A stretch of 64,000 nucleotides of DNA from NCBI GenBank assembly GCA_035934555.1, contig DASYXT010000039.1, positions 50,643 to 114,642 of the forward strand. The letters are read 5' to 3'. Position numbers and translations under genes: made by a program. How positions within the stretch are numbered: position 1 is the first letter of the stretch; each line of letters starts with the position of its first letter. Positions 12,585 through 59,337 of this stretch are shown here, one piece after another. This DNA is from Verrucomicrobiia bacterium. Lineage in GTDB: Bacteria > Verrucomicrobiota > Verrucomicrobiia > Limisphaerales > UBA8199. Under the pieces are notes generated by a model that did not search any database, was not told the origin of the DNA, and worked only from the letters and a program-made list of their open reading frames with translations.

Positions 12585-12693
12585 TGCTTCTGTTGTTTCG
12601 CTCACCCGTTGCCGAGCGCAGTCGGTCCCTGAATCCAGCTCTGCGCAACGGTTGAAGCGCAATCTAGAAACAATGAAGCACCTTGGATGCCAA

Positions 12694-13575
12694 CTATTTG
12701 TCTTCCTTGAGCACGGCCAGGAACTGTTTCATCGCCGGCGAAAGAACCTTGTTCTTCTTATAAATCGCCGCCAAGGGCCGGAAAAATTCCCCGTCATCCA
12801 GTGCGACTTGCGCCAGCGTTTGCTTGTTGACTTCCTGCAGCACGGTGCCTTGCGGGACGATGGCGACGCCGGCATCAATTTCCACCGCGCGTTTCACCGT
12901 CTCAATATTGTCAAATTCCATCACGTGTTGCACGTGCACCGAATGGTCTTTGAGGATTTTATCGAGCGCTTTGCGGGTGGGGATGTCCGGCTCGAACCCA
13001 ATAAACTTCTGGCCATTAAGGGTTTTGAGGCGCAGGGTCTTGGATTTGGCCAAAGCATGGTTGGGGTGGCAGATCAAGACCAGCGGTTCCTTGCGGAGCG
13101 GGAAAATTTCGAGTTTGTTGTCGCGAACGGGGTAAGCCACCAGCCCGATGTCCACCACGTTGCCAATGACGTCTTCATACACCTGGTTGGCGCGGCGATA
13201 CTCGACATGCACGTTGACGGTCGGGTAGGCCTTAAGGAACTTCTTCAGGTATGGCGGCAAATCGTGCAGGCCGATGCTGTAGATGGTCGCGACCCGGATC
13301 GTGCCGGAAATGATTTCTTTGATTTCCTGCAGCTTGCTGTGCAGGGATTCATAAGTCTGGATGACCTGTTTGCTGTAGTCGTAAAGGACCTGGCCTTCGC
13401 GGGTGAGCCGGAAGTGCTTTTTGCTGCGCTCGATGAGCAGGGATTTGAAAAACCGCTCCAGCGAGCTGATCTGCTGGCTCACGGCTGATTGGGTGACTTG
13501 GTTGATTTCCGCGGCCTTGGTAAAGCTTTCCGTCTCGGCCAAATCGCAGAACACCTTCAGACTCTCGATTTGCAT
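12694..13575 (-). CDS. LysR family transcriptional regulator
   Basis: N-terminal wHTH (FTKAAEINQVTQSAVSQQISSLE) plus a substrate-binding domain of about 200 aa. Confidence 0.85.
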   Translation of the reverse strand: MQIESLKVFCDLAETESFTKAAEINQVTQSAVSQQISSLERFFKSLLIERSKKHFRLTREGQVLYDYSKQVIQTYESLHSKLQEIKEIISGTIRVATIYSIGLHDLPPYLKKFLKAYPTVNVHVEYRRANQVYEDVIGNVVDIGLVAYPVRDNKLEIFPLRKEPLVLICHPNHALAKSKTLRLKTLNGQKFIGFEPDIPTRKALDKILKDHSVHVQHVMEFDNIETVKRAVEIDAGVAIVPQGTVLQEVNKQTLAQVALDDGEFFRPLAAIYKKNKVLSPAMKQFLAVLKEDK

Positions 13576-46057: not shown

Positions 46058-46443
46058 CAGAGAAGACAGAGGCCGTAAGGCGCGATCGATTTCCGTGAGT
46101 AGAGGCTGCCATGGAAACCCCTCCGTTTTCTCTGTTTCCTCCTGTTCAATTCTGCAGGGTTGGGGCCGGGGACTCAGCTAGCGCGAGTACCTGTCGCCGA
46201 GAAAAATGGCGACGGAATTCTTCGCCGCGTACGAGCGTGCCGCGCGAGAACCGATTGAATCGAACAGGAGATAACAGAGAAAACAGAGGCCTAAGGACGT
46301 ACTGCAGCGCGGTCTTTTGTCGTGAAAGCTCACCAAACCGTAAGGCGCGATCGATTTCCGTGAGTAGAGACTGCCATTGAGAACCCTCCGTTTTCTCTGT
46401 TGCCTCCTGTTCAATTCTGCCTGGTTGGGGCTGAGACTCAGCT
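45964..46443. repeat. Segmental tandem duplication (copy 1 at 45964-46179, copy 2 at 46181-46443); each copy carries a 33-bp-arm hairpin element
   Basis: Both copies start gcgcgagtacctgtcgccgag and end ggg(c/g)tga/ggactcagct. Copy 2 has a 1-nt deletion in the gene-derived part and an extra block of about 47 bp in the hairpin loop. Confidence 0.85.
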
Positions 46444-47825
46444 CACGCCCCGACGTGGCGCTTGAGCACCTCGGAAATCTTTTGCGACCATTTCTCCAAT
46501 GTGGCCGCTTCCCGGCCTTCGAGCAGCAGCCGCGCTTTGGGTTCGGTACCCGAATAGCGCAGCAACACTCGGCCGCCCTGCGGTTTTAGCTCCGCCTCGG
46601 CCTCAGCCAGCAGCTTGGGCAGGTTATCGAGTTGTTCGAATGGCCGCTTTTCACGCACCATAACGCTGGTCACGAGTTGCGGGAAACGCGTCCAGCATTT
46701 GCTCAAAGCCGAAAGCGGCGCACCCCTGGTCTTCATGATGCGCAAGACTTGGAGCGCCGCCACCAGGCCGTCGCCGGTGGTGCTGAAATCGCGGAAGATC
46801 AAATGCCCGCTCTGCTCGCCGCCCAGCTCAAATCCGTGGCGCAGCATTTCATCGATCACATTCTTATCGCCAACGGGGGTGCGCACGACTCGGCCGCCGG
46901 CGGCTTCGACGGCTGCGTCCAGCCCGGCGTTGCTCATCACCGTCGCCACCAGTGTTTTCTCCGGCAGCGCGTTCTGCGCCAGCAAATCCACCGCCGCCAT
47001 CGCCATGACATCGTCGCCGTCGAGCAGTTGTCCGGCTTCGTCGCACAACAGCACGCGGTCGGCGTCGCCGTCGTGGGCGATGCCCAGGTCGGCGCGGTGC
47101 TCCCAGATTTTACGGCACATCAAGGCCGGGTGCATCGAGCCGCAATCCTTGTTGATGTTCATGCCGTCGGGCTGGTTGCCGTAGGTGATCACCTCGGCGC
47201 CCAGCTCCCGCAAGACGCAGGGTGTCGATTTGTAGGCCGCGCCGTGGGCGCAGTCCACCACGATGCGCATGCCCTCGAGGGTCAGCCCGCGCGGAAAGGA
47301 GGCTTTGGCATGCTCGATGTACCGTCCGAGCGCGTCGTCAATACGCACCGCCTTGCCAATCTCGTCGGCAGTCGGCCGGATATTCTCGATTTGACCGCTG
47401 AAAACCAGGCTCTCGATTTCAAACTCGATTTTGTCGTCCAGCTTGTAACCGTCCGCGCGGAAGAACTTAATGCCGTTGTCGTCATAGGCATTGTGCGAGG
47501 CGGTGATGACGATGCCGGCGTCGGCGCGCAGGCTGCGTGTGACATAGGCCACCCCGGGCGTCGGCAGGGGACCGATGAAGAGCACATCGACGCCCATGGA
47601 AAGAATCCCTGACGAAAGGGCGTTCTCGAGCATATAGCCCGAAAGCCGCGTGTCCTTGCCGAGCACGATCTTGTGGCGCCCGCGGCTGCGCGCCTGCGTT
47701 TGCAGGTTCTTGAACACATGCCCTGCGGCACGGCCCAGCTTCAGCGCCGTCTCGGCGGTTACCGGCTCGATGTTGGCCGTCCCGCGAACACCGTCGGTTC
47801 CGAAGATTTTCTTTGAAGCGGCCAT
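46443..47825 (-). CDS. glmM: Phosphoglucosamine mutase
   Basis: Phosphoserine loop ITASHNAYDDNGIKF, the Mg site AHDGDADRV, and GEQSGH. Confidence 0.92.
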   Translation of the reverse strand: MAASKKIFGTDGVRGTANIEPVTAETALKLGRAAGHVFKNLQTQARSRGRHKIVLGKDTRLSGYMLENALSSGILSMGVDVLFIGPLPTPGVAYVTRSLRADAGIVITASHNAYDDNGIKFFRADGYKLDDKIEFEIESLVFSGQIENIRPTADEIGKAVRIDDALGRYIEHAKASFPRGLTLEGMRIVVDCAHGAAYKSTPCVLRELGAEVITYGNQPDGMNINKDCGSMHPALMCRKIWEHRADLGIAHDGDADRVLLCDEAGQLLDGDDVMAMAAVDLLAQNALPEKTLVATVMSNAGLDAAVEAAGGRVVRTPVGDKNVIDEMLRHGFELGGEQSGHLIFRDFSTTGDGLVAALQVLRIMKTRGAPLSALSKCWTRFPQLVTSVMVREKRPFEQLDNLPKLLAEAEAELKPQGGRVLLRYSGTEPKARLLLEGREAATLEKWSQKISEVLKRHVGA

Positions 47826-47843
47826 GGCGGTTTGTGAAGGAGT

Positions 47844-48284
47844 TCAGGGCGCCGATGGGGTGGGCGGAAAGACAACCTGCGCTTCGTCGGGGTCCACGCG
47901 CAGGCGAGTGACACCGGGCGGGGTGGACACTTCGATGCGCGTGCGCATGTCGTGGGCCGCTTCGATCCCTGTCACATCAACAATGGCGCGGATGTCGCGT
48001 TCGTACAGCCGGTTCAATACCCCCGGCTCGCCTTCGACCGTCACTTCCACTTCCTTCGGGTTGACGTGTACCAGCCGGGTATCCTGCGCGGAGGATATGA
48101 TGAGCACCGGCAGATGGCTAAAGGTGCGCTGCGCCAGCGGCACCAGCGACAATGGATGCACGGGCAAAGAGTCTTTTTCGTTCGCCATGCTGTTGACGGT
48201 GAACCACACCAGGACGGCCAGGCCAAGCGAGAAAAGCTTCAGCCAAACATCCCGCAGCAGCAGCGTTTTGAGCCAGGCGATCAT
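47844..48284 (-). CDS. cdaR: YbbR-like CdaA regulatory protein
   Basis: N-terminal TM followed by one YbbR-like beta domain. Its ATG overlaps the cdaA stop (ATGA). Confidence 0.65.
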   Translation of the reverse strand: MIAWLKTLLLRDVWLKLFSLGLAVLVWFTVNSMANEKDSLPVHPLSLVPLAQRTFSHLPVLIISSAQDTRLVHVNPKEVEVTVEGEPGVLNRLYERDIRAIVDVTGIEAAHDMRTRIEVSTPPGVTRLRVDPDEAQVVFPPTPSAP

Positions 48285-49162
48285 TTGGCGACTGTGGTGC
48301 TGGTGGTGGTGGTCGGCGGCGGCGCATCGGTTTGCCCGACCACCATCGTGCCGGGTGCGGCTGATTCCCGTGGGCGGAAGCGCAGCCATTTGATCCAATC
48401 GCGTGAGCTGGTTGCCGGCGTCACCAGCACGGAGGTGAGAAACGCGCGCAACTCTTCGAACGTCACTCCCCGCACTAATTGGGCTTTGTAGGCGTAGGAG
48501 ACCGCGCCGGTCTCTTCGGAAACGACGACAACCACAGCGTCGGTCTCCTCGCTCAACCCCAACGCCGCCCGGTGCCGTGTGCCGATCGACTTATTGAGGT
48601 CCTGGCGCTGGGTCAGCGGGAAAATGCAGGCGGCAAACGCAATGCGGTCGCCTTTGAGGATCACCCCGCCATCGTGAATCGCATTGTTCGGGAAAAAAAT
48701 CGTCTCGAGCATTTCCGGCGTGGCCTCGCAATCGATGACGATGCCGGATTCCACCGCTTCCTGAAGATGGATGGATTGCTCAATGGCAATCAAGGCGCCG
48801 ATCCGGACATCGGACAGCCGCTCGACGGTTTGAATAATCACTTCGATGTTCTCGCGCTGTTCGTGCGCGGTGGCAAACAGCGGCAGATTCCCCAACTCGG
48901 CCAGCATCCGCCTCAACTCCGGCTGAAAGATGACCAGTACCGCCAGGATGAAGAACGCGGAGAAGGCGCCCAGGAGGTATTGCAGCACGCGCAATTTCAG
49001 CAGCACGCTCACCAGCACGAAGGCCAACAGCAGCACGAGAAACCCCGTGACCACCGGCGCTCCCCGCGTCCCGCGGATGAACCGCAGGGCATGGTATATC
49101 CCTACCGTGAGGATGAGGATTTCCATCACGGGCCGCCAAACCTGTTGGAGGGTGAACCACAT
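48281..49162 (-). CDS. cdaA: Diadenylate cyclase CdaA
   Basis: Three N-terminal TM helices and a DAC domain with the motifs HDGGVIL, GTRHRAALGLSEETD and VVVVSEETG. Confidence 0.9.
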   Translation of the reverse strand: MWFTLQQVWRPVMEILILTVGIYHALRFIRGTRGAPVVTGFLVLLLAFVLVSVLLKLRVLQYLLGAFSAFFILAVLVIFQPELRRMLAELGNLPLFATAHEQRENIEVIIQTVERLSDVRIGALIAIEQSIHLQEAVESGIVIDCEATPEMLETIFFPNNAIHDGGVILKGDRIAFAACIFPLTQRQDLNKSIGTRHRAALGLSEETDAVVVVVSEETGAVSYAYKAQLVRGVTFEELRAFLTSVLVTPATSSRDWIKWLRFRPRESAAPGTMVVGQTDAPPPTTTTSTTVAK

Positions 49163-49174
49163 TATTACTAGCTA

Positions 49175-50014
49175 CTATCTTTGTTCCGCCATCACTGCTT
49201 CGGTCAGGCGCACCGCCTGTACCGTTTCGGCCACATCATGCGCCCGAATCAACCGCGCGCCGGCGGCTACTGCCAGGCACGCGCACGCCAGCGCCCCGGG
49301 CAGGCGTCCCACCGCATCGGCCCCGGGCAAACGGCCCAGAAACCCTTTGCGCGAGACTCCCAGCAGCAAGGGCCGCGCCAATTGCACCAACTCGCGCACT
49401 CCCCCGATTAGTTGCACATTATGCGCGAACGTTTTTCCAAAGCCAATACCAGGGTCCAATATAATTTGTTCGCGGGGGATTCCGCAATCGCTCAATTGCT
49501 CGAGACGATCAGAAAAGAACTCGCCGACTTCGCGCACGACGTTCTGATACACCGGGTTGTGCTGCATGGTTTGCGGTGTTCCCTGCATATGAACGCACAC
49601 ATAACCCGCGCCGGATTCGGCCGCCAGCCGCCACATTTCCGGGTCCCGCCGGTTGGCGCCCACGTCGTTGATGACACTAACCCCTGCATCCAGGGCCACC
49701 CGTGCGACCCCGGCCTTCATCGTGTCGATCGAAATCGGCACGCTCACGCGTCCCGCTAATCCCTTCAACACTGGCATCACACGTTTGAGTTCTTCCAGTT
49801 CAGGCACCGGTGCGGCTCCCGGACGGGTGGATTCGCCGCCAATATCCAGCATTTCCGCGCCGTCGGCGACCAGTTTGAGCGCGTGCTCGACAGCCCGCGC
49901 CGGATCGAGAAACCGGCCCCCGTCAGAAAAGGAATCGGGCGTAACGTTAACAATCCCCATCACCAGCGCCGGGCGGGGAAAGCGGAACTCAAATTCGCGG
50001 CAGCGCAGCAGCAC
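49175..50014 (-). CDS. folP: Dihydropteroate synthase
   Basis: MGIVNVTPDSFSDGG, DIGGESTRPG and the pterin-binding barrel motifs. Confidence 0.9.
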   Translation of the reverse strand: MLLRCREFEFRFPRPALVMGIVNVTPDSFSDGGRFLDPARAVEHALKLVADGAEMLDIGGESTRPGAAPVPELEELKRVMPVLKGLAGRVSVPISIDTMKAGVARVALDAGVSVINDVGANRRDPEMWRLAAESGAGYVCVHMQGTPQTMQHNPVYQNVVREVGEFFSDRLEQLSDCGIPREQIILDPGIGFGKTFAHNVQLIGGVRELVQLARPLLLGVSRKGFLGRLPGADAVGRLPGALACACLAVAAGARLIRAHDVAETVQAVRLTEAVMAEQR

Positions 50015-50018
50015 GCTC

Positions 50019-50408
50019 TTATTCCCGCCCCATTTGAATCAGTTCAATTTCGTAACCTTCCGGCGCATCGACGAAGGCGATTCCCCCGCCGTCCTCTTTG
50101 AAGTGGGGGCCGTCGGAATAACTCAAGCCGAGCTTTTGCAGGTGGCGCCCGAACTCCTCGAGGCTGTCCACCTCGAAGGCCAGGTGGGTCAAATCCGGCT
50201 GCACTTTCACCGGCCCGCTCGCCGGGAAATGGCACAACTCGATCAGTTCCTCGCTCCCGGGTGTCTTCAAAAATACCAATTCCGACCCACGCGGCGACTT
50301 GTGCCGCCGCACTTCCTCCAACCCCAGGACATCCTGGTAAAACTTCACCGTTCGCGCCAGGTCATCGACGCGGTAGCGCGTATGCAGAAGTTTCTTGGCT
50401 TTGACCAT
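50019..50408 (-). CDS. VOC-family protein (glyoxalase I-like)
   Basis: LLHTRYRVDDLARTVKFYQDVLGL start. 129 aa. The upstream extension in the ORF track is encoded by REP copy D and was trimmed. Confidence 0.7.
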   Translation of the reverse strand: MVKAKKLLHTRYRVDDLARTVKFYQDVLGLEEVRRHKSPRGSELVFLKTPGSEELIELCHFPASGPVKVQPDLTHLAFEVDSLEEFGRHLQKLGLSYSDGPHFKEDGGGIAFVDAPEGYEIELIQMGRE

Positions 50409-50442
50409 GACCCACCATACCCCGGAATCGGCTCCAGGCAAG

Positions 50443-50556
50443 GCGGAGCCCGGCACTTTAGTCCGCGGCAGCGTCCGAAGCTCAAGCGCGCGGCGATTTA
50501 TCCACGCGCCATGCTCAGTCTGTTGTTGCTGCGGACTAAAGTCCCGCGCTCCGCCC
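50443..50556. repeat. REP/MITE-like nested-palindrome element, copy D (both arms)
   Basis: Left arm ggcggagcccggcactttagtccgcggcagc and right arm gttgctgcggactaaagtcccgcgctccgcc. Confidence 0.8.
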
Positions 50557-50678
50557 AACCGTCAAAGTTTTGTGTTTGACCGTCGGTCGGGTTTTGGATG
50601 AGTATCGCGCGCTGCCCAAAACAGGCGATGTTGTTTCGGGTAGCAAAAAACCTGTCGGCGCGGAAGCCCACACAGTAA

Positions 50679-52586
50679 ATGCTGAATACGAAATCATTTC
50701 TGGCGGTTGATTTTGGGGCGGGCAGCCTCAAGCTGGCCGAGTTCGAAGTTAACGAGGCCGGCGGGCTGCGTCTCAAGCAGTATGGGATCAAGTCCCTCGG
50801 TGCAGAAGGCTCGCAGGAAACGGCCCGGGAAGCGGTTGTCCTCAAGGCCCTCCAGGAGCTGATTGCTGAAAAAGGAATCAAATCCAAGACCGTCAATGTC
50901 TGTGCTCCCGGGTTCCACGTCTTCTCCAAATTCGTCAAATTGCCGCCGGTCGATGCGGGCAAAGTAACCCAGATCATCCAGTATGAAGCCCAGCAAAACG
51001 TGCCCTTCCCGCTGGAAGAAGTCGTTTGGGACTACCAGATTTTGGGCTCAACTGCCGGTGGCGAACTTGAGGTTTTGCTGGTGGCCATCAAGGCGGATAT
51101 TGTCGAGGGCCTGTTCCGCGTTACCGAAACCGCGGGCCTGAGTTTGCAGCTCTGCGACGTGTCGCCCGCCGCGCTGTGCAATTCGTTTCGCTACAACTAC
51201 GGCGACCTCGAAGACTGCACCATGCTGCTGGATATCGGCGCCAAGACGAGCAACCTGCTGTTCTTCGAGAAAGGCAAGGTGTTCTCCCGCAGCATCAACC
51301 TGGGCGCCAACTCGATCACCCAGGACTTCGCCAACGAATCCAAGAAGAAGTTCGATGCGGCCGAGAAGATCAAAATCCAGGAAGGCTTCGTCAGCCTTGG
51401 CGGCGCCTACGAAGAGCCTGAAAATCAGGACCAGGCGGCGATCTCGAAGATCGCCCGCCAGTTCATGACTCGCCTCCACATCCAGGTCAACCAGACGATG
51501 CAGTTTTACCGCGGCCAGCAGGGCGGCTCCAACCCCGCCCGGTTATTCCTGTCCGGCGGAGCGTCGATCATGCCCTACACGGCGCAGTTCTTCGCCGAGA
51601 AACTCAACGTCCCCGTCGAATATTTCAATCCGCTGCGCAACATCCAGATTGATCCGGCGATTAACCTCGAGGACCTGGCGCACGTCGCGCATTCCCTCGG
51701 CGAAGTCGTCGGGCTGGGCCTGCGCAACCTGGCGCATTGCCCGGTCGAGCTGAACCTGATGCCGGAGAGCACGCTCAAGTGGCAAAGCTTCAACCAGAAG
51801 AAGCCGTATTTGATCGCGACGGCGTTCAGCATTGCCGCGGTCATTGCGGCGATCGGGTTGCTCTTCGACAAGCTGGCGTCCGCCAAAGACGCCGAGCGCG
51901 ATAAAGTCCACGGCCAGGTTGAGCCGGCGAAAATCGCGGCCCAAAGACTGGACTCGGCGATGGGCAACCGGGCCAAGGCGCAAAAGGAGGCTGACCAAAT
52001 CGTTACCTGGATGGACCAACGCTACTATTGGCCGCAAGTGCTCTCCGGGTTGCGTGACTCGCTGATCCGGGTTGAAGGCAGCCTGAACCAGAAACTTGGT
52101 GTGCCCACCGGTATTTGGGTGGATCAACTCATCACCGTCGAGCCTCGCACCGCCGACGACCAGGCCGCGGCTGCCGCTGCCGCCCAATCTCCTTCGGCCG
52201 CCGCCATGGCCCGCGAGTCGGAATTGGCGTTCGCCCGCCGCTATGGCTTGCGCTCCGCCACGCCCGCCGCGCCCGCGGCGTCTCCCGACAGCACCACACC
52301 CACCGAAGGCACGCTGAAGAAAAAGAAAGCCGCCGAGGGCGAGATCGCCAACATGACCATTACGTTCCGGGCGGTGGGACTCAATTCGGCGGATGCCAAT
52401 GCAGACAAGTACATTTATTACGGAGTGTTAGAAGAGTTGAAGAATAATCCGCTCTTTGACAAGGACTACACGGAAGGGGACGGCAATATCGGCACCGAAG
52501 ACCCCGTGGCGGGCGGGACGAGCCCCTGGCCGGGCACCTTCACGTTCAAGATCAACGTCGGCCTCAAGCACCCGTTCAAGCTCTAG
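50679..52586 (+). CDS. pilM: Type IV pilus assembly protein PilM (actin-like ATPase fold) fused to a PilN-like TM/coiled-coil segment and an Ala/Pro-rich extension
   Basis: LAVDFGAGSLKLAEF, LLDIGAKTSNLLFF and FLSGGAS motifs. A TM helix (YLIATAFSIAAVIAAIGLLF) sits at about aa 385, followed by a coiled-coil-like region and a low-complexity tail. Confidence 0.8.
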   Translation: MLNTKSFLAVDFGAGSLKLAEFEVNEAGGLRLKQYGIKSLGAEGSQETAREAVVLKALQELIAEKGIKSKTVNVCAPGFHVFSKFVKLPPVDAGKVTQIIQYEAQQNVPFPLEEVVWDYQILGSTAGGELEVLLVAIKADIVEGLFRVTETAGLSLQLCDVSPAALCNSFRYNYGDLEDCTMLLDIGAKTSNLLFFEKGKVFSRSINLGANSITQDFANESKKKFDAAEKIKIQEGFVSLGGAYEEPENQDQAAISKIARQFMTRLHIQVNQTMQFYRGQQGGSNPARLFLSGGASIMPYTAQFFAEKLNVPVEYFNPLRNIQIDPAINLEDLAHVAHSLGEVVGLGLRNLAHCPVELNLMPESTLKWQSFNQKKPYLIATAFSIAAVIAAIGLLFDKLASAKDAERDKVHGQVEPAKIAAQRLDSAMGNRAKAQKEADQIVTWMDQRYYWPQVLSGLRDSLIRVEGSLNQKLGVPTGIWVDQLITVEPRTADDQAAAAAAAQSPSAAAMARESELAFARRYGLRSATPAAPAASPDSTTPTEGTLKKKKAAEGEIANMTITFRAVGLNSADANADKYIYYGVLEELKNNPLFDKDYTEGDGNIGTEDPVAGGTSPWPGTFTFKINVGLKHPFKL

Positions 52587-52587
52587 T

Positions 52588-53724
52588 ATGTCCTGGATCA
52601 AACGCAACCTGTTCTTCGTCGTCTTTAGCGCCACGGCCCTGGTGCTGGTTGGGCTGGCCGGGTACTATGCCTGGTCGAAGTACACCGCCAACAGCGTCGC
52701 GTGGGATAATCTCAGCAACGATTACGAAGAGCTCAAGCGGCTCAACAGCGCGCCGATTTTGCCTGGCGATGGGAAGATCAATAACGTCGAGCTTGCCAAC
52801 AACCAGCGTGCCCAGCTCCTGACCTTCATCAAGAGCACCCGCCCTTATTTTCAGCACATTCAGCCGATCCCCAATATGCCAGCGGTTTCCGACCAGGATT
52901 TTTCCACGGCGCTGGGCATGACCCTGAACCACCTGCAGCGCGATGCCACCAACAATAGCGTTGTGCTCACCGTCCCCAACTACAGCTTCTCCTTCCAGGC
53001 GGAGCAAAACAAAGTTTCGTTCGCCGCAGGCGGCCTGGCGCCGCTTTCAGTGCAACTGGGCGATATCAAAGCCATTTGTGACGTCCTCTTCAACGCCAAG
53101 GTCAATTCCATCGACAATATCCGGCGCGAACGCGCCTCGCCGGACGACTCGGCCGGGCCGCAGAGCGATTTCCTCGTGGATAAGTCCGTTACCAACGACT
53201 TGGCGATCATCACGCCTTACGAGATTACCTTCAAGTCCTTCACGACCGAGTTGGCCGCAGTGCTGAGCGGTTTCGCCAGCTCCCCCTATGGGATGGTAGT
53301 CAAAAGCATTAACGTTAAATCCGCCCCATCGGCTCCGCCCGAGCAGACGCCTGGGCCGGGCGTCGCATATGTTGCACAGCCCCAGCCCAGTTACTATCCG
53401 CAGCGCGGGCGAATGGAGGGCGACGCTCAGGCGGCCTTCAACAGCCGCTACGGAATTGGCGGCGGCGGCGGCGACGGCGGCTATAGCAGTCGCTATGGTG
53501 GTGGCGGGGCCAACGGCGTCGGCATCCCCTACCGTCCGCTGCAGGCGGGACAAGGTTACGCGCCGGCCTATCCGCAGCCGACGTATGCGGCGCAACAACC
53601 TTACGCCTCGGGTGCGGCCGCAGTAAACAAAGGCGGGCTGACGACACTGCTCGACGAGAAACAGCTCGAGATCACGATTGACCTCGCCCTCATTAAGCTT
53701 CTGCCTCCCAAAAACGCCAGGTAA
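52588..53724 (+). CDS. Amuc_1100-family pilus-associated protein at the PilO position
   Basis: N-terminal TM. Segments parallel the remembered Akkermansia Amuc_1100 sequence (LSVQLGDIKAICDVLFNAKVNSIDNIRR; TPYEITFKSFTTELAAVLSGF...VVKSINVKS; EKQLEITIDLALIKLLPP). It sits between the pilM and secretin genes. Confidence 0.6.
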   Translation: MSWIKRNLFFVVFSATALVLVGLAGYYAWSKYTANSVAWDNLSNDYEELKRLNSAPILPGDGKINNVELANNQRAQLLTFIKSTRPYFQHIQPIPNMPAVSDQDFSTALGMTLNHLQRDATNNSVVLTVPNYSFSFQAEQNKVSFAAGGLAPLSVQLGDIKAICDVLFNAKVNSIDNIRRERASPDDSAGPQSDFLVDKSVTNDLAIITPYEITFKSFTTELAAVLSGFASSPYGMVVKSINVKSAPSAPPEQTPGPGVAYVAQPQPSYYPQRGRMEGDAQAAFNSRYGIGGGGGDGGYSSRYGGGGANGVGIPYRPLQAGQGYAPAYPQPTYAAQQPYASGAAAVNKGGLTTLLDEKQLEITIDLALIKLLPPKNAR

Positions 53725-53726
53725 CG

Positions 53727-54542
53727 ATGGATTTCCTCAAGAAACATTACGAAAAGATTGTGCTGGGCATCGTGCTGGTCGGCCTCGCCGGCGCAGTTGT
53801 GTTCATGCTCTTTTACATCTCCAACGAGCAGCAGCGCCTGACGGAAATGAGTGATAGCGTCACCCATCCCCGGGTCAAGGAGTTGACCAATCTCGACATG
53901 ACCCTTTCCGAGCAGGCCCTTAAGCGCGTCGCCACGCGCGTCAGCCTCGATTTTGGCCCGCCCAACCGCCTGTTCAATCCGGGCGCCTGGCAAAAGACCG
54001 CCGATAACCGTTTGATTCCGCGCGAGAACGTCGGCCCGGCGGCGCTGACGGTCACCAACATCCAGCCGCTCTGGTTCCGCTTGAGCCTGGAAAGTGTTGA
54101 AGCGGTCGAAGGCGGTTACAAATACGTCATCGGCATCGAAAACCAGGCTGACCCCATTCCCGCTCACCGCTACAAGAAAACTACCTACTGCAAGCTGAAC
54201 GAGAAAACCGACATGTTCACCATCACTGAGGTCCACGGCAAACCCGAGGATCCGTCAGAGTTGGTGCTGATGCTGAAAGATTCCGGCGACAAGGTGGTAG
54301 TCAAGAAGGACAAACCTTACGAGCGGGTTGACGGTTACAGTGCCGACCTGGCCTATCCGCTCGAAAACAAGACCTGGCCCACTCGCCGGGTGGGCGCGTT
54401 GCTCCCTTTTAATGGCGAGGAATACAATGTCGTCGCTATAAATAAAACCGAAGTCGTACTGGCCGCCAAATCCAACGGTAAAAAATGGACGATTAAGGCC
54501 GCGTCCACCGATACCAAACCCAATCCCGACCGAGCCACCTGA
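53727..54542 (+). CDS. Membrane-anchored hypothetical protein at the PilP position (Amuc_1099-position)
   Basis: N-terminal TM (IVLGIVLVGLAGAVVFMLFYI) and a beta-rich C-terminal part. It starts 2 nt after the previous stop. Confidence 0.5.
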   Translation: MDFLKKHYEKIVLGIVLVGLAGAVVFMLFYISNEQQRLTEMSDSVTHPRVKELTNLDMTLSEQALKRVATRVSLDFGPPNRLFNPGAWQKTADNRLIPRENVGPAALTVTNIQPLWFRLSLESVEAVEGGYKYVIGIENQADPIPAHRYKKTTYCKLNEKTDMFTITEVHGKPEDPSELVLMLKDSGDKVVVKKDKPYERVDGYSADLAYPLENKTWPTRRVGALLPFNGEEYNVVAINKTEVVLAAKSNGKKWTIKAASTDTKPNPDRAT

Positions 54543-54578: not shown

Positions 54579-57347
54579 ATGATCAAAGCAGCCTCCCTCC
54601 CCCTGTGTCTCACTCTGTTGCTGGCGGCCGCCGGCGTTGCCTACGCTCAGGCCCCAGCCCAGGAAACCGCGGTTAACGAAGCCGTCATGCGCCAGGCCGA
54701 GCACGTCCTGCTCCGCCAAAAGCTCGGCGACGCCCTTGCCGCCCAGGAACGCCATGACCTGGCCAACGCCGCCAAGCTTTATGACGCCGCCTGGGACCTG
54801 GTGCTCAAGGTCGGCATCGCCAATGTCGAACCCGAAGCCGCCCAGACCCGCGCCGGCCTGGCCGCCGTGCGCATGGAATTGGCCCGCGGCGACCAGCGCC
54901 ACGGCGCCTATCGCGAAGCCGGCCTGGAAGTGGATGATGTGCTCCGCGCCGATCCTGGCAATGCCGAAGCTCTGGCGTTCAAACACGCCAATGACAAAAT
55001 CATCCAGGACATGCGCGGGCACGTGGCTGACAATGCAACGCTCAGCCAGGTCCCCACCATCATGAACGAGAAGAAGGACGTCGCTACCCTGGTTCAGAAT
55101 GGCAAGCTGCTCTTCGAGATGGGCAAAATCCCCGAAGCCGAGGCCATCCTTAAGCAAGCGACCAAACTAGACCCGCAAAATCAGGCCGCGTACTATTACC
55201 TCAACCTCATTAGCGAAGCCAAATACCAGGAAGCGCTGAATCGCCGCGACATCGCCTCCCGCACCGGCCTGGTCGATATCGAAAAGGCCTGGGCGACTTC
55301 GCCCAAGCGCGACTTGCTGCCGCAGCCCAACATGTACGCGCGCACCAACCTGATCAATACCAGCGCCGGCCGCCGCATCATTTACAATAAACTCAACCGG
55401 ATCCGTCTGGATGAGGTCAAGTACCAGAACCTGCCTTTGCGCGAGGTCGTCAACAACCTCTATGACCAGGCCAAGCGGCGCGACCCGGAGAAGCGCGGTA
55501 TTAACTTCATCATCAACAATAACGTGGATACTGCGGTCAACCCGCTGGCTCCCCCCACCGGCGGGCCCGTTCCTACCGATCCGACTACTGGCTTGCCCCT
55601 GCCGCAGGCTGCCCCGGCTGAGCAAACCGATATCGGCGATGCCTCCATTAAAATCGATCCGGCCCTGACGGATGTCAGCCTCGCGGATGTCCTCGATGCC
55701 ATTGTCAAAGTTTCCGACAAGCGCATCAAATACTCCGTCGAGGATTACGCAGTCGTTTTCTCTGTCAAAGCCAACGACCCCCAACCGCTCTATACCCGGG
55801 TGATTAAAGTGGACCCCAATACTTTTCAACAAGGTTTGGAAGGCGTCACTGGGTTTGACTGGGGTTCGATTGCCCAGGCCAGCAATGGCGGCGCCGGCGG
55901 CGGCGGCGGTATTGGTGGCGGCGGCGGTATTGGTGGTGGCGGCGGTATTGGCGGCGGCGGCTTGGGCGGCGGCGGCCAGGGTGGCGGCTTGCTGACGGTG
56001 CCGCGCATCAACGTTGCCGGTGGCACAGCCGGTGGCGGTATCGGCGGCGGCGGCGGCGGCGGCGTTGGCGGTGGCGTTGGCGGCGGCGGCATTTTCGGCG
56101 TGACCATCACGAACAACATGGTCGCCCGGCAGGCGATGGTCCGCCAATTCTTCCTCACCATGGGCGTCGATCTCAACCCGCCCAAGACCGTCTTCTTCAA
56201 CGATCGCGAAGGCACCATTATCGTGCGCGCTACCCTCCAGGACCTCGATACCATCGAACAGGCCGTCCAGGTCCTTAACATTGCTCCGCCTCAGATCCAC
56301 ATTAAATCCAAGTTCCTCGAAGTCGCTCAAAACGACACCCGAGCTTTTGGCTTCGATTGGTTCCTGGGCAACTTCCTGATGGGCGGCGGTAAACTCGCCG
56401 CCGAAGGCGGCACCGCGCCCTCTTATAATGGCGTGCCGACCGCGGCCAATCCGCAGGGCTTTTTCCCCGGCACCCAAGGGCCCAATGCCGCCGCCGGCAT
56501 CGCGGGTAACACCATTGCTCCTTCGGCTTCCGACCAACTCATCACCTCCGGCTTGCGTAACACCGTCAATGCCCCGGCGATTGCAACCCTCACTGGCATC
56601 CTGACCGACCCACAATTCCGCGTAGTGGTTAAGGCGCTTGAACAGCGCGACGGCACCGACCTGCTGGCCGAATCGTCCGTCACGACTCTCAGCGGGCGCC
56701 AAACCGAAGTTGAAGTCCTGGACCTGCAAACGATCGTCATTGGTAACACCGTCGGCGGCGTGGGCGGCGCCAGCGCCGCGCCCACAACTGGAGGAATTGG
56801 TTCGACTGTCCTTAGCCAAACGCCCATCGGCAGCAGCTACGCAACCGAAACCCTGCCCTTCGGGCCGACACTCGATTTGATTCCCTATGTGGATGCGGAT
56901 GGTTTCACGATCCAGATGACCATTATTCCCACCTACGTCGAGTTCATCGGCTATGACAATCCCGGCCAGTTCGTGCCGCAAGCCCAATCGGTCGCCGGCA
57001 ACAACATCGGCGTGCCCATCACCGGCGTGCTGCCACTGCCACGCTTCCGGGTGCGCCAGGTTACCACCTCCTGCATTGTCTGGGACGGCCAGACCATCGT
57101 GCTGGGCGGCCTCATTTCCGAGCACGTCAGCAAGGAAATGGATAAAGTGCCGATCCTGGGCGATATCCCGATGGTGGGCCGGTTATTCCGCAACGAATCG
57201 AGTGTCAGCCAGAAAAAGAACCTGATGATCTTCGTCACCCCGACGATTATCGATCCCGCGGGCAATCGCTTCCATTCGGAGGACGAAATGCCCTTTGCCC
57301 AGAACGCGATCCCGCTGCAAAAGCCGATCGTGCCGCCGGCGCAATAA
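54579..57347 (+). CDS. Secretin (type II/III secretion system family, PilQ/GspD-like) with a TPR-like N-terminus and a poly-Gly insert
   Basis: C-terminal secretin signature VPILGDIPMVGRLFRNESSVSQKKNLMIFVTPTIIDP, signal peptide, and an N-terminal helical repeat region. Confidence 0.85.
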   Translation: MIKAASLPLCLTLLLAAAGVAYAQAPAQETAVNEAVMRQAEHVLLRQKLGDALAAQERHDLANAAKLYDAAWDLVLKVGIANVEPEAAQTRAGLAAVRMELARGDQRHGAYREAGLEVDDVLRADPGNAEALAFKHANDKIIQDMRGHVADNATLSQVPTIMNEKKDVATLVQNGKLLFEMGKIPEAEAILKQATKLDPQNQAAYYYLNLISEAKYQEALNRRDIASRTGLVDIEKAWATSPKRDLLPQPNMYARTNLINTSAGRRIIYNKLNRIRLDEVKYQNLPLREVVNNLYDQAKRRDPEKRGINFIINNNVDTAVNPLAPPTGGPVPTDPTTGLPLPQAAPAEQTDIGDASIKIDPALTDVSLADVLDAIVKVSDKRIKYSVEDYAVVFSVKANDPQPLYTRVIKVDPNTFQQGLEGVTGFDWGSIAQASNGGAGGGGGIGGGGGIGGGGGIGGGGLGGGGQGGGLLTVPRINVAGGTAGGGIGGGGGGGVGGGVGGGGIFGVTITNNMVARQAMVRQFFLTMGVDLNPPKTVFFNDREGTIIVRATLQDLDTIEQAVQVLNIAPPQIHIKSKFLEVAQNDTRAFGFDWFLGNFLMGGGKLAAEGGTAPSYNGVPTAANPQGFFPGTQGPNAAAGIAGNTIAPSASDQLITSGLRNTVNAPAIATLTGILTDPQFRVVVKALEQRDGTDLLAESSVTTLSGRQTEVEVLDLQTIVIGNTVGGVGGASAAPTTGGIGSTVLSQTPIGSSYATETLPFGPTLDLIPYVDADGFTIQMTIIPTYVEFIGYDNPGQFVPQAQSVAGNNIGVPITGVLPLPRFRVRQVTTSCIVWDGQTIVLGGLISEHVSKEMDKVPILGDIPMVGRLFRNESSVSQKKNLMIFVTPTIIDPAGNRFHSEDEMPFAQNAIPLQKPIVPPAQ

Positions 57348-57371: not shown

Positions 57372-59327
57372 ATGTTATTCTCGCGCTCTGCCCATAAAGC
57401 GTTCCTGAGCGGGCTGCTGGCCTTGGGCATCCCCGCCGGCCTGCTGGCCCAAGGCATTTACACCCCGAGCGGGAGCGAATACCCCATCGCCCCATCACTG
57501 CCCGGCGACCAGGTTCATCCCTGCCTCGCGCTCACCACCAATGGCGGGTTCCTCGTTTGGGAAGACAATATCACCGACGGCTACGGCCTGGGGATTAGCG
57601 CAATACGTTTGGATAGCGGCTTCTCCCCAACGCTCGCGCCGTTCCGGGTCAATGTGACCGGCACCAATGATCAAGAGCATGCGAAGGTCTCGCTGCTTAA
57701 GGGCGGTGGTGCGGCATTCGTTTGGCAAGGAGGTAAGGAAGGCTTGCAGCACATCTTTGCCCGCTTTCTTTCTAGTTCGAACACTTGGCTCTCGAGTACA
57801 GACATTGTGGTAAACGCTGTCTCGACCCGTTATCAAGTCAATCCCGCCATCGCGACACTTACCAACGGCAATGTCGTCATAGTCTATAGCAGCCTCAATC
57901 AGCAGGCTACCAATTCCCTGCAAGATGTGTACGGCCAAATCTTCTCTTCCACTGGTCAGAAGGTCGGCGGTGAGTTTCTTATCAACCAGTTTGCCGCCTA
58001 TAATCAGCGGGACCCCTCCGTTGCGGCGCTCGCGACGGGCGGCTTCGCGGTTGTTTGGATTTCCGAGCAAGAGCGCAGCGGGAACATGGATAACGCTAAC
58101 TCGTCTTACCTTTATTCGGTCAGCACCAACAGGGCGACGGTGGATGTTTTTGGCCGGCTGTATAGCGCTGCCGGGACACCCGTGGCCGGCGAGTTTCTCG
58201 TGAATAGCAGCTATGATATCTGTTCGAGTCCTGTCCTGGCCGCGGGCACCGATGGTGGGTTCATGGTTGCCTGGGCCCAAAGGAACGCGCAAATCCCTCA
58301 ATATAGCTGGGATGTTTATGCCCGCCCTTATTCGAGTGCGGGCGTTGGCGGCTCGACCCAAACCGTTAACACTTACCTCTATGGCGATCAGTACCTCCCC
58401 CGGATCAGCGCTTTGGGGACCGACTATTTTGTCGTTTGGACCAGCCTGGCCCAGGATGGCTCCCGCGAAGGCGTGTTCGGTCAGTACCTGCGCAGTGATG
58501 GCACGCGCGTCGGGGGCGAGCTGCGTATCAATACCACCACTATCGGCCAGCAAATTCACCCCAATGTGGCCTCCGACGGGTTCAGCCGCTTCGTCATCGC
58601 CTGGACCAGCTATACTGCCGGTGGCAACAGCTTCGATTTATTTGCCCAGCGCTACGTCAATACGGCTCAACCGCTGGTGCCGATGAATCCGCCCTTCGTT
58701 GATGTGCCGTTCATTCTGGTCAATGGCGCTTATGTTCCCCAAATCCGCGTGTCTTGGCCGCTTCAGTCGGGTCTGCCGATCGATCACTACGAGGTTTATG
58801 CGAATGGGTCGCTCACCCCGGCTGCTCTGCTGACCAACGTTGGCACATGGACCCTCACTGGCATCGCGCCGGGCAGTAGCAACTCATTTCAGGTTACCTA
58901 CGCAACCACCGATGGCCGCCGCGCGCCGTTGTCTGGCGCCAGCACCGCCACCACTTGGCTGGGTTATAGCTGGTATGGCGAACTGCCTCTTGAATGGATG
59001 CAGAAGTACTACACTTGGGACAGCTCTCACTGGCCCTCCCCCAATGTCCCCCTCACTGCTGGCGGCCCCTCGCTCGAACAAGTGTTTCTCTCGGGCGGCA
59101 GCCCGCTGGACGCCAGCACCTGGCTGCGCACGGCACTGGCGGGCACGCCTCAAGGATTTTTCCTCAACTGGAACCCGCACCCCGGCTATACGTACCAGGT
59201 CCAGACCTCGAGCAACCTGAGTTCGTGGTCGAACATCGGGGCGCCGCGCTTTGCGGCCGGCAGTAACGACTCACTCTACGTGGGCATCCATAACCCCGCT
59301 TACTATCGCGTGCTGCTCCTCCGCTGA
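57372..59327 (+). CDS. Secreted seven-repeat (propeller-like) protein with a C-terminal beta-sandwich module
   Basis: Signal peptide. There are seven units of about 55 aa: G-x-EF-x-VN...Q-x-x-P-x-VA...GGF-x-V-x-W...(D)V(F/Y)GQ-x-(F/Y). The C-terminus reads FFLNWNPHPGYTYQVQTSSNLSSWSN...YYRVLLL. Confidence 0.6.
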   Translation: MLFSRSAHKAFLSGLLALGIPAGLLAQGIYTPSGSEYPIAPSLPGDQVHPCLALTTNGGFLVWEDNITDGYGLGISAIRLDSGFSPTLAPFRVNVTGTNDQEHAKVSLLKGGGAAFVWQGGKEGLQHIFARFLSSSNTWLSSTDIVVNAVSTRYQVNPAIATLTNGNVVIVYSSLNQQATNSLQDVYGQIFSSTGQKVGGEFLINQFAAYNQRDPSVAALATGGFAVVWISEQERSGNMDNANSSYLYSVSTNRATVDVFGRLYSAAGTPVAGEFLVNSSYDICSSPVLAAGTDGGFMVAWAQRNAQIPQYSWDVYARPYSSAGVGGSTQTVNTYLYGDQYLPRISALGTDYFVVWTSLAQDGSREGVFGQYLRSDGTRVGGELRINTTTIGQQIHPNVASDGFSRFVIAWTSYTAGGNSFDLFAQRYVNTAQPLVPMNPPFVDVPFILVNGAYVPQIRVSWPLQSGLPIDHYEVYANGSLTPAALLTNVGTWTLTGIAPGSSNSFQVTYATTDGRRAPLSGASTATTWLGYSWYGELPLEWMQKYYTWDSSHWPSPNVPLTAGGPSLEQVFLSGGSPLDASTWLRTALAGTPQGFFLNWNPHPGYTYQVQTSSNLSSWSNIGAPRFAAGSNDSLYVGIHNPAYYRVLLLR

Positions 59328-59337
59328 ATTCATTTCT

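Follow-up and report, generated by a model that had tools for sequence, protein, structure and literature searches.

An Amuc_1100-family, PilO-like protein of Verrucomicrobia subdivision 3 with a loop, predicted to be disordered, that carries an Arg-Tyr-Gly motif shared with its PilN-like partner

A gene for an Amuc_1100-family, PilO-like protein of 378 aa with predicted bitopic topology lies at 52588..53724 (+) of the window, by which we mean the whole 64-kb stretch of DNA that was analysed. The host is a soil bacterium of Verrucomicrobia subdivision 3 that has not been cultured. The ATG of the gene is located one base past the TAG of the upstream gene and its stop codon is TAA; independent gene callers returned versions of 378 aa and 375 aa in two other assemblies. 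In the encoded protein, a membrane anchor at the N-terminus leads into a coiled coil, and two alpha-beta-beta motifs follow; its sequence reads as that of a probably bitopic protein. It begins with the conserved, cytoplasmic peptide MSWIKRN followed by the anchor (aa ~8-28; 52588..52671, +), and residues M1, W3, K5, R6, N7 and L8 are invariant in 34 sequences. In the AF2 model, helices span residues 2-54 (anchor and coiled coil), 66-87 and 102-123, the first motif is formed by alpha150-169/beta174-180/beta206-217 and the second by alpha219-230/beta236-245/loop/beta360-371. The PilO-like core through strand 3 (alpha150-169 to beta236-245), delimited with AF2 and Foldseek, is encoded at 53035..53322 (+). 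It is followed by a low-complexity loop that is predicted to be disordered and leads from strand 3 to strand 4 (aa 246-359; 53323..53664, +), and by the C-terminal strand 4, LEITIDLALIKL (aa 360-371; 53665..53700, +), which completes the second motif and around which L355, D356, E357 and L360 are invariant in the alignment of 34 sequences. The mean pLDDT of the model is 61, with 77-89 in the core elements, 87 in the last strand and 30-55 in the loop. An N-terminal TM helix, a helical segment and two alpha/beta segments had been described in an earlier note on this DNA, and the model bears this out; the peptides quoted there (PQPSYYPQRG..., RYGIGGGGGDGGYSSRYGGGGANG and EKQLEITIDLALIKLLPP) are all found in the ORF at 52588..53724 (+).

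The upstream gene encodes an Amuc_1101-like PilM-PilN fusion of 635 aa (50679..52586, +; TIGR01175, PilM_2, AF2). Its cytoplasmic actin-like PilM domain (aa 1-350) is followed by a PilN-type motif and, beyond the motif, by a membrane helix, a coiled coil and a periplasmic alpha-beta-beta/alpha-beta-beta domain. TIGR01175 (pilM) scores 147 bits on this protein, over its cut-off, Pfam PilM_2 matches too, and Amuc_1101_fam matches with an E-value of 3e-145, under its equivalog cut-off. The PilN-type motif LNLMP (aa 358-362; 51750..51764, +), the counterpart of INLLP in PilN, sits just past the PilM domain and is nearly invariant in the alignment of fusion-protein homologs (alignment A2). In a profile search with 28 homologs, CP.VELNLMP was paired with MARINLLP of 5eou, an engineered PilM-PilN chain, at an E-value of 0.14 for the whole hit. 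The AF2 model of residues 371-635 has a pLDDT of 79.7, and Foldseek matched the PilN-like half weakly to PilO (E 0.17 to 1.2). Strands 1 and 2 of this half are separated by an Ala/Pro-rich low-complexity loop (aa ~486-554; 52134..52340, +) that contains the motif ELAFARRYGL (RYG at 52239..52247, +), and helix 137-152 of the PilN-like sub-model ends in RYG.

Downstream, a 271-aa bitopic protein (53727..54542, +) occupies the position of PilP or Amuc_1099, and its gene keeps this slot in 80 loci. It had been called PilP-like, a label that agrees with its position but is unsupported by sequence similarity: NCBIfam, Pfam (searched with 18 members) and a profile search of the PDB all gave no match. 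The next gene encodes an Amuc_1098-like secretin of 922 aa with an N-terminal TPR region (54579..57347, +; Amuc_1098_fam E 3e-107, under its equivalog cut-off). Its insert of nearly pure Gly (aa ~440-510; ~55896..56108, +) has Gly-rich counterparts in 52/52 related secretins examined. After the secretin come the genes for two large exported proteins (651 aa and about 794 aa; 57372..61719, +), which are of unknown function and have no family matches in NCBIfam or Pfam. By tblastn, the 651-aa protein was located in 65/83 loci; the 794-aa protein was located in 24 of those with a sufficiently long flank. The order of the six genes is kept in at least 65 loci. Relative to pilM-pilN-pilO-pilP-pilQ, PilM and the secretin are recognised, PilN is fused to PilM and has a weak fold match, and the gene in the PilP position is unrecognisable. 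The context Amuc_1101-Amuc_1100-Amuc_1099-Amuc_1098 is present, with a gene lacking a family match in the Amuc_1099 position.

The assignment to the Amuc_1100 family, which the earlier note had made, is supported by a match to NCBIfam NF038287 (Amuc_1100_fam; 63.7 bits, E 1.9e-17, aa 1-255 against profile positions 1-257 of 326), by PF28028 on homologs and by the crystal structures that are the best fold match. The NF038287 match is significant, yet under the curated equivalog cut-off (63.7 vs 180 bits). PF28028 'Amuc_1100' is recorded for P0001 and P0002, which are 99% and 89% identical to the query, and for 120/120 listed homologs, so that membership of the query is indirect, via the records of its homologs. 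NCBI labels the ~50%-identical homologs 'Amuc_1100 family pilus-like protein', and the family comprises about 1,400 clusters at 50% identity. The best Foldseek matches in the PDB are Amuc_1100 structures 6laf, 6kny and 6lad (E 2e-4 to 1e-3, probability 1.00), with target-normalised TM-scores of 0.55-0.67. Next comes PilO of P. aeruginosa (2rjz_A, E 1.3e-3, probability 1.00), followed by the weaker matches 3jc8 chain O (E 3.7e-2, probability 0.80) and 5uvr (E 0.14, probability 0.89). The model also agrees with the published description of Amuc_1100 as two alpha-beta-beta motifs that resemble type IV pilus/type II secretion proteins (PMC13119276). PDB sequence searches with the single sequence or a close-homolog profile found neither Amuc_1100 nor PilO. 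When the family alignment was compared with Amuc_1100 by hhalign, the N-terminus alone was aligned (E 0.054), pairing the MSWIKRN region and the anchor with NWITDN and the anchor of Amuc_1100. PilO/PilN models in Pfam and NCBIfam matched neither the query nor its partner at E-values up to 10. Because of the sub-cut-off NCBIfam score, the failure of the profile to find the PDB chains and the hhalign alignment of the N-terminus only, the relation to Akkermansia Amuc_1100 is a distant one, and the link depends on the broad NCBIfam and Pfam profiles together with the fold comparison. Overall, the evidence supports the 378-aa protein as a PilO-like, regular member of a described family. The likeness of Amuc_1100 to PilO/PilN has been published before (bioRxiv 10.64898/2025.12.30.696933; PMC13119276); the PilO reading is already in the literature, and the finding is largely explained by existing annotation.

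The locus resembles that of Akkermansia muciniphila in that the gene sits between those of a PilM-like protein (Amuc_1101 there) and a secretin (Amuc_1098), and both proteins have a low-complexity loop between strand 3 and the terminal strand. However, the sequence likeness is seen only via the broad family profile, no Amuc_1102-like gene lies directly upstream here, and the host is a soil bacterium of Verrucomicrobia subdivision 3 rather than a gut mucin degrader. The loops differ as well: the one here has about 110 aa, is rich in Gly/Tyr/Gln and bears two RYG motifs, and that of Amuc_1100 has about 50 aa, is Ala/Pro-rich and lacks RYG. With PilO (2rjz/5uvr and chain O of 3jc8 from M. xanthus), the protein shares a gene position after pilM/pilN and before the secretin, and both the AF2 secondary structure and Foldseek (2rjz_A, 3jc8 chain O, 5uvr) agree with a PilO-type fold. 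Compared to PilO, two helices ahead of the core (66-123), the invariant cytoplasmic heptapeptide and a 110-aa disordered loop breaking the last hairpin are additional, and PilN is fused to PilM. GspL of type II secretion is a single chain that runs from a cytoplasmic actin-like domain through one membrane helix to a ferredoxin-like domain in the periplasm, and its PilO-like partner GspM is encoded adjacent to it. The one-chain layout of the upstream fusion protein resembles GspL, and the GspM-type chain 5hl8 was among the weak Foldseek matches of the query (E 3.3). At the sequence level, no similarity to GspL/GspM was detected; TIGR01175 scores the cytoplasmic domain of this system as PilM, and the INLLP-like PilN-type motif is retained. 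The PilO reading is supported because the gene sits between the PilM-PilN fusion and the secretin. The earlier proposal of a PilO counterpart accordingly holds up in view of the 2rjz fold match (probability 1.00), the upstream fusion with LNLMP and the secretin two genes on. We consider it probable that the product of this gene is the PilO equivalent in an envelope-spanning machine that belongs to the Amuc_1098-1101 type and is type IV pilus-like (or type II secretion-like).

The low-complexity stretch had been estimated at about 95 aa; it is present and stands out in the window, but measures about 110 aa (246-359). Its 111 residues include 23 G, 17 A, 14 P, 11 Y, 10 Q and 5 R. In a composition scan of 1435 segments of 100 aa each, taken from 43 proxy genes of the 64-kb window, its G+Y+Q content of 0.44 was the second highest and its entropy the third lowest. 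Only the Gly-rich insert of the neighbouring secretin surpassed the loop, and the two most Gly-rich low-complexity segments of the window are both located in this operon. The 'insert' of the earlier note is really coding, but a survey of 186 relatives revealed an expanded form of a family-wide loop and not a peculiarity of this protein. A loop of about 25-150 aa (27-149 in the 186 relatives) occurs at the same position in every relative including Amuc_1100. In the query, KSINVKS and LEITIDLALIKL enclose ~110 aa; in Amuc_1100, a ~50-aa Ala/Pro loop lies between SIRIRNE and QVFVQVSLNLVHF, the counterpart of strand 4. With a G+Y+Q fraction of 0.40, where the median is 0.27, the loop of the query ranks second among the 186 relatives. 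Many relatives have Ala/Pro-rich loops with 1-3 Tyr and few Gly, and conservation of the Gly/Tyr/Gln bias among orthologs was not found in the 186 relatives. This bias is the sole lineage-particular trait of a loop that is itself family-wide.

Comparison with the 89%-identical relative gave a dN/dS of 0.18 for the loop and 0.07 for the core, and all indels in the loop were in-frame and codon-sized. An independent assembly from farmland soil contains the loop with 100% identity. A (GGC)8 triplet tract detected by TRF (53458..53481, +) encodes a Gly run between the two RYG motifs, the length of which differs in frame between the query and the 89%-identical relative. A second conserved island within the loop, GVGIPYRPL (53515..53541, +; family consensus LGGIxYRPL), contains the residues G311, G312 and R316, which are nearly invariant in 34 sequences. 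The loop is genuine coding sequence under purifying selection within the hairpin of strands 3 and 4.

The new point of this analysis is a short helix in the loop that ends in an invariant RYG, together with the same motif in the loop of the PilN-like partner. Motif 1 (aa 287-289; 53446..53454, +) ends the predicted short helix DAQAAFNSRYG (aa 276-288), and motif 2 (aa 302-304; 53491..53499, +) lies in YSSRYGGGG. R287, Y288 and G289 do not vary among 34 sequences at about 50% identity. RYG was found in 140/143 loops of at least 80 aa and in 3/32 loops of less than 60 aa; relative to composition-shuffled loops, RY is enriched 5.5-fold and YG 2.2-fold, the latter in 201 non-redundant loops. Within the 64-kb window, RYG is confined to the 378-aa protein, its PilN-like partner and one unrelated ORF. 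Across genomes, both proteins carry it in 27 cases, only the PilO-like protein in 5, only the PilN-like protein in 3 and neither in 30. This co-occurrence is largely one split between two clades, and a Fisher p-value therefore overstates independence. The flanks of the two motifs are more similar within a genome than between genomes (BLOSUM 7.15 vs 3.4, permutation p 0.004). Limisphaera carries RYG (loci L019 and L024), and P0198, P0225, P0230 and P0248 have PYG or GYG repeats in its place. The sister clade without RYG retains the operon. RYG was not found in 52 secretins and occurs only sporadically in the 271-aa protein, and we found no operon feature that is present only together with RYG, as the Gly insert of the secretin and the 651-aa protein exist in both clades. 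Domain loss in the shorter secretins of the RYG-less clade was considered and rejected, since these are split genes. As a side observation, loci L058 and L077 hint that the two proteins gained or lost RYG together on independent occasions.

For the function of the loop, we infer the following arrangement. The PilO-like protein would use its coiled coil and core to pair with the PilN-like half of the fusion, and the pair would form a ring in the periplasm as the coupling between the secretin and the PilM ring in the cytoplasm. The disordered loop of the PilO-like protein would display a short amphipathic helix capped by the invariant Arg-Tyr-Gly, and the PilN-like partner would show the same motif from its own disordered loop. 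Most likely, the two loops would then serve as flexible arms whose motif docks to a shared periplasmic partner or to each other, with the 271-aa protein, the TPR-bearing N-terminus of the secretin and the cell wall as candidate partners. That the co-evolving RYG helices on both subunits constitute, in one large clade of Verrucomicrobia subdivision 3, an undescribed pair of docking arms gripping a shared periplasmic partner is a tentative proposal and, taken by itself, unlikely.

It is somewhat unlikely that the loop is a passive disordered spacer that faces away from all interfaces and in which RYG only caps a helix packing on its own domain. In favour of this, helices are commonly C-capped by a Gly that follows an aromatic residue, loop length (27-149 aa) and composition vary widely with most relatives being Ala/Pro-rich, the dN/dS of the loop is 2.5-fold above that of the core, and a whole sister clade has kept the operon without RYG. 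However, a spacer of this kind sits uneasily with the invariance of RYG at about 50% identity and with a partner loop that has the same motif with similar flanks covarying within genomes. In addition, even the shortest loops have at least 25 residues, far beyond the need of a beta-hairpin, and a dN/dS of 0.18 is still constrained. Improbable in our view is a sticker-and-spacer behaviour, in which Tyr-Gly/Arg stickers on a Gly/Pro/Ala spacer, with at least a dozen copies per ring and on both subunits, would form a cohesive periplasmic mesh or condensate that the Gly-rich loops of the secretin might join. It corresponds to the likeness to prion-like or phase-separating sequence put forward in the earlier note, an idea that is weakened by how much the loop varies in composition among relatives. 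The loop is reminiscent of FUS-like domains and FG-nucleoporins in its Gly-rich disorder dotted with aromatic-Gly dipeptides and Arg, and the 23 G, 11 Y, 10 Q and 5 R among 111 residues, the enrichment of YG, the PYG/GYG repeats of other members and the clustering of the window's two most Gly-rich segments in the operon would fit such a behaviour. Unlike those proteins, the loop is periplasmic, is anchored at both ends in one domain and has a valency of 1-5 motifs, mostly one or two, and its conserved part is a helix-capping motif whereas bulk composition is unconserved, down to 1-3 Tyr and few Gly in many relatives; the Gly insert of the secretin is also present regardless of RYG. Just as improbable is that the long loop permits strand exchange, with strand 4 entering the sheet of a neighbouring PilO-like or PilN-like subunit and thereby stitching the ring. 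The succession of domain, linker of at least 25 aa and terminal strand is universal in the family with a linker that exceeds the need of a hairpin, and Amuc_1100 was reported to be a monomer in solution and a trimer in crystals (PMC13119276). The monomer model, on the other hand, places strand 4 in its own sheet with a pLDDT of 87, and a swap would be less simple in the partner, where the loop lies between strands 1 and 2.

Two further explanations concern the protein itself. The Akkermansia literature puts Amuc_1100 at the outer membrane or cell surface, unlike the inner-membrane PilO: it was enriched in the outer-membrane fraction and labelled on the cell exterior (PMC5332112), and the NCBI family name reads 'pilus-like protein'. 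A surface-exposed, pilus-associated outer-membrane protein in place of an inner-membrane alignment subunit nevertheless has very little probability here. The N-terminus reads as an uncleaved anchor because a positively charged invariant heptapeptide precedes it and no Ala-x-Ala type site is seen, the title of 6kny calls the same segment of Amuc_1100 a transmembrane region, and the PilO-type fold and the gene position speak for the alignment subunit. A frameshift or assembly artefact as the source of the low-complexity stretch has a negligible probability, even though the region is GC-rich (0.66-0.67), contains the (GGC)8 tract and is overlapped by spurious ORFs in other frames. The open frame runs into the conserved terminal strand, and alignments to hundreds of homologs of 335-398 aa extend over 99% of the query. 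With the identical loop in an independent assembly, the in-frame indels and a substitution pattern that fits selection in frame (dN/dS 0.18), an artefact, which the earlier note had named as a possible refutation, is ruled out.

Amuc_1100 has been heavily studied as a host-active protein of Akkermansia, while its role inside the bacterium has barely been discussed. With about 1,400 clusters, a conserved gene order and an adjoining PilM-PilN fusion, the locus described here adds comparative evidence for the family as a PilO-type subunit of an envelope-spanning machine. The disordered loop ahead of the last strand is a constant of the family, and in a large environmental clade it bears a motif that is shared with the partner. 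If the reading of docking arms is true, these would represent a coupling mechanism unlike the classical PilP bridge. RYG provides a concrete mutable target for how such machines hold together across the periplasm.

The open reading frame at 52588..53724 (+) exists, encodes 378 aa and contains all peptides quoted in the earlier note; its ATG lies one base past the stop codon of the upstream gene. The proposed assignment of its product to the Amuc_1100 family agrees with a match to NCBIfam NF038287 (Amuc_1100 family) over aa 1-255 (E 1.9e-17), although the score of 63.7 bits lies below the curated cut-off of 180. Pfam PF28028 'Amuc_1100' is recorded on all homologs among the matches listed, including the 99%-identical one, and homologs of about 50% identity are named 'Amuc_1100 family pilus-like protein' by NCBI. 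Amuc_1100 crystal structures are the top Foldseek matches (6laf, 6kny and 6lad; E 2e-4 to 1e-3, probability 1.00), followed by P. aeruginosa PilO (2rjz; E 1.3e-3, probability 1.00), with 3jc8 (M. xanthus PilO chain) and 5uvr further below. Since direct sequence comparison with Amuc_1100 is marginal, the relationship is a distant one. Searched with a profile, 1.84 billion representative proteins yielded 1445 clusters with E no higher than 1e-3, and 498 when the limit was 1e-30. Of the 80 retrieved loci, nearly all come from metagenome-assembled genomes within Verrucomicrobia subdivision 3 (Limisphaerales, Pedosphaera); three are from Limisphaera, of which two belong to RefSeq genome assemblies. 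Several loci (L001, L009, L022, L023, L040, L044 and others) carry the Verrucomicrobia-type operon in records titled Acidoferrum, Limnocylindrales, Bifidobacterium or Dongiaceae, which are probably mislabelled or contaminated metagenome bins.

The fold match to PilO (2rjz) and the location between a PilM-PilN fusion and a secretin gene bear out the suggestion that this protein is the PilO counterpart. The upstream gene (50679..52586, +) encodes a 635-aa protein identified as PilM by TIGR01175, with a score over the cut-off, and matching Amuc_1101_fam with E 3e-145. Immediately C-terminal to its PilM domain stands 'CPVELNLMPES', which a profile of 28 homologs pairs with 'MARINLLP' of PDB 5eou, an engineered P. 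aeruginosa PilM-PilN fusion chain; the motif is exactly in place, while the whole hit is weak (E 0.14). As LNLMP (51750..51764, +) is the counterpart of the PilN INLLP, the protein looks, from its sequence, like a natural PilM-PilN fusion. In its C-terminal half, a membrane helix precedes a long helix and a domain of alpha-beta-beta/alpha-beta-beta topology (model pLDDT 79.7); this half has weak fold matches to PilO (E 0.17 to 1.2) and no match to PilN sequence models, and one homolog fragment was named PilN by JGI. GspL of type II secretion has the same architecture. If the upstream protein is read as a PilM-PilN fusion, the PilO/GspM-type partner would be the Amuc_1100-like protein. The likeness of Amuc_1100 to PilO/PilN has already been published (bioRxiv 10.64898/2025.12.30.696933; PMC13119276), and Amuc_1100 has simply been termed PilO (PMC11573778); the Akkermansia cluster is reported to be the MUL2 locus, important for mucin acquisition (bioRxiv 10.64898/2025.12.30.696933).

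Related loci share the gene order fusion, Amuc_1100-like, 271-aa, secretin, 651-aa and 794-aa genes. The 271-aa bitopic protein (53727..54542, +), well conserved in 80 loci, occupies the PilP/Amuc_1099 position between the PilO-like gene and the secretin gene, so that 'PilP-like' holds as a statement of position; it shows no detectable resemblance to PilP, to NCBIfam or Pfam families or to PDB sequences. The secretin (922 aa, 54579..57347, +), two genes 3' of the PilO-like gene, matches Pfam Secretin and Amuc_1098_fam (E 3e-107) and has a TPR region in its N-terminal part. Between this part and the N3/secretin domains lies a nearly pure Gly insert (GGGGIGGGG...) of ~70 aa (~55896..56108), coded partly by a tandem repeat (55899..55961, 3.5 copies of 18 bp); a comparable insert was present in 52/52 related secretins examined. 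The 651-aa (57372..59327, +) and 794-aa (59335..61719, +) proteins are large, have signal-peptide-like N-termini and keep their positions in 65/83 and 24/83 related loci, respectively; they gave no family matches save faint fn3 and may be parts or cargo of the machine. Divergent from the operon and immediately upstream lies a housekeeping cluster (46443..50558, -) of glmM, a ybbR-like gene, the diadenylate cyclase gene cdaA, folP and a glyoxalase-family gene, arranged identically in two close relatives. A prepilin-type N-terminus (GFTLIEIMIVV) is found in only one ORF of the window (12207..12728, -), ~38 kb away from the assembly genes.

In the AlphaFold2 model of the PilO-like protein (34 homologs), the N-terminal helix (aa 2-54) forms a membrane anchor plus stalk and is followed by helices 66-87 and 102-123 and by a core ordered alpha150-169, beta174-180, beta206-217, alpha219-230, beta236-245. 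A loop of low confidence (aa 246-359, pLDDT 30-55) separates this core from a confidently predicted last strand (aa 360-371, pLDDT 87). Its ~110 aa, rather than the ~95 of the earlier note, include 23 G, 17 A, 14 P, 11 Y and 10 Q. When 100-aa windows (1435 in all) from 43 proxy genes of the 64-kb stretch were compared, it ranked second in G+Y+Q, surpassed solely by the Gly-rich insert of the operon's secretin, and third in low entropy. We reject an artefact as the origin of the loop, given the same gene in two other assemblies, in-frame indels and the dN/dS. An independently assembled farmland-soil contig encodes a homolog with two substitutions, both outside the loop, and a JGI contig encodes an 89%-identical homolog; independent gene callers called the gene on both contigs. 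The loop differs from that of the 89% relative only by in-frame indels, some within a (GGC)8 tract (53458..53481, +) that codes for the Gly run separating the two Arg-Tyr-Gly (RYG) motifs, and dN/dS is 0.18 in the loop and 0.07 in the remainder of the protein. These codon indels suggest that triplet slippage at (GGC)8 may alter loop length. The best 120 of 686 homologs are 335-398 aa long, except for one 290-aa fragment, mostly with 99% query coverage.

Amuc_1100 has the same design with a shorter loop: ...YLFTVNSIRIRNE, ~50 Ala/Pro-rich residues, then QVFVQVSLNLVHF (sequence verified against PDB chains). Across 186 relatives, loops span 27-149 aa (median 96; 110 here) and are usually Pro/Ala/Gly-rich; ours ranks second for G+Y+Q and third for Tyr. 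The low-complexity insert is thus real and its Gly/Tyr/Gln bias extreme, but the loop itself is family-wide, and the oddity lies in the degree of bias rather than in the presence of a loop. R287, Y288 and G289, which close a predicted short helix (DAQAAFNSRYG), are invariant in an alignment of 34 sequences of about 50% identity. Conservation also marks two more islands, LGGIxYRPL and, immediately ahead of the last strand, KGGLxTVLDEKQL. RYG occurs in 140/143 loops of at least 80 aa versus 3/32 loops of <60 aa. Compared with shuffles that preserve composition, 201 non-redundant loops are enriched 5.5-fold in RY and 2.2-fold in YG, and YG is preceded by R in 199/259 and by P in 29/259 cases. Some relatives without RYG (such as P0198, P0225, P0230 and P0248) have loops filled with PYG or GYG repeats (e.g. 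NPYGPYAGNQPY..., GYGYTPGGYGGYGVPGYG); aromatic-Gly dipeptides thus recur across family loops.

Among six-frame ORFs of at least 100 aa in the 64-kb window, only three contain RYG: the PilO-like protein (twice), the PilM-PilN fusion and one unrelated ORF. In the fusion protein the motif (ELAFARRYGL, RYG at 52239..52247) lies in an Ala/Pro-rich loop (52134..52340, +) joining the first two strands of the PilN-like domain, and likewise terminates a predicted helix. Its consensus, E-[A/M]-F-R-R-R-Y-G-[L/I], nearly matches that of the PilO-like loops, A-A-[F/M/Y]-A-[S/R/A]-R-Y-G-[L/G/I]. Among loci with both proteins complete, 27 have RYG in both, 5 in the PilO-like protein only, 3 in the partner only and 30 in neither; the Fisher p of 4e-10 overstates independence because co-occurrence is mostly one two-clade split in a tree of core domains. 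Two members of the motif-poor clade, L077 (PDRYGRG and PNRYGRG) and L058, have matching motifs in both proteins. Within loci that carry the motifs, the sequences flanking them are more alike between the two proteins of one genome than between proteins of different genomes (mean BLOSUM 7.15 versus 3.4; permutation p 0.004). None of 52 secretins contains RYG, its occurrence in the 271-aa protein is only sporadic, and neither the secretin Gly-rich insert nor the 651-aa protein tracks its presence. Loci L041, L049, L058 and L077 (also L062, L070, L073, L079) of the RYG-less sister clade have a split secretin gene, broken at one identical site inside the Secretin domain, equivalent to aa ~745 here. 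ORF1 terminates at two stop codons or a frame change; ORF2, past a short spacer, has its own Met, a signal-peptide-like segment and the conserved last ~160 aa, so this looks like a natural two-piece protein whose halves would be exported separately.

Computed evidence shows the family membership, fold and gene context of the PilO-like protein, a loop that exists and is under constraint, and a motif in common with the partner. We propose that the protein is an inner-membrane-anchored subunit that partners the fusion's PilN-like half, and that the two disordered loops would act as flexible arms, each presenting an RYG-capped helix to one common partner or to each other. The strongest alternative is that the loop is a passive spacer. 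A sticker-and-spacer mesh of such loops is weakened by their unconserved composition and low valency, and strand exchange by the terminal strand remains a candidate. The PilO fold, the uncleaved anchor and the invariance of the cytoplasmic heptapeptide sit poorly with an outer-membrane or surface location such as that reported for the Akkermansia protein (PMC5332112). The cytoplasmic N-terminus MSWIKRNL (52588..52611) is almost invariant at M1, W3, K5, R6, N7 and L8, which is unusual among PilO-type proteins, and Amuc_1100 has NWITDN in its place; this conservation suggests an interaction on the cytoplasmic side, possibly with the PilM domain.

The observation and main interpretation of the earlier note hold, and both were already covered by annotation and literature, and this protein adds a member to the known Amuc_1100 family. 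Genuinely new is the RYG motif common to the PilN-like and PilO-like loops, in which it co-varies, and which represents a modest yet testable lead.
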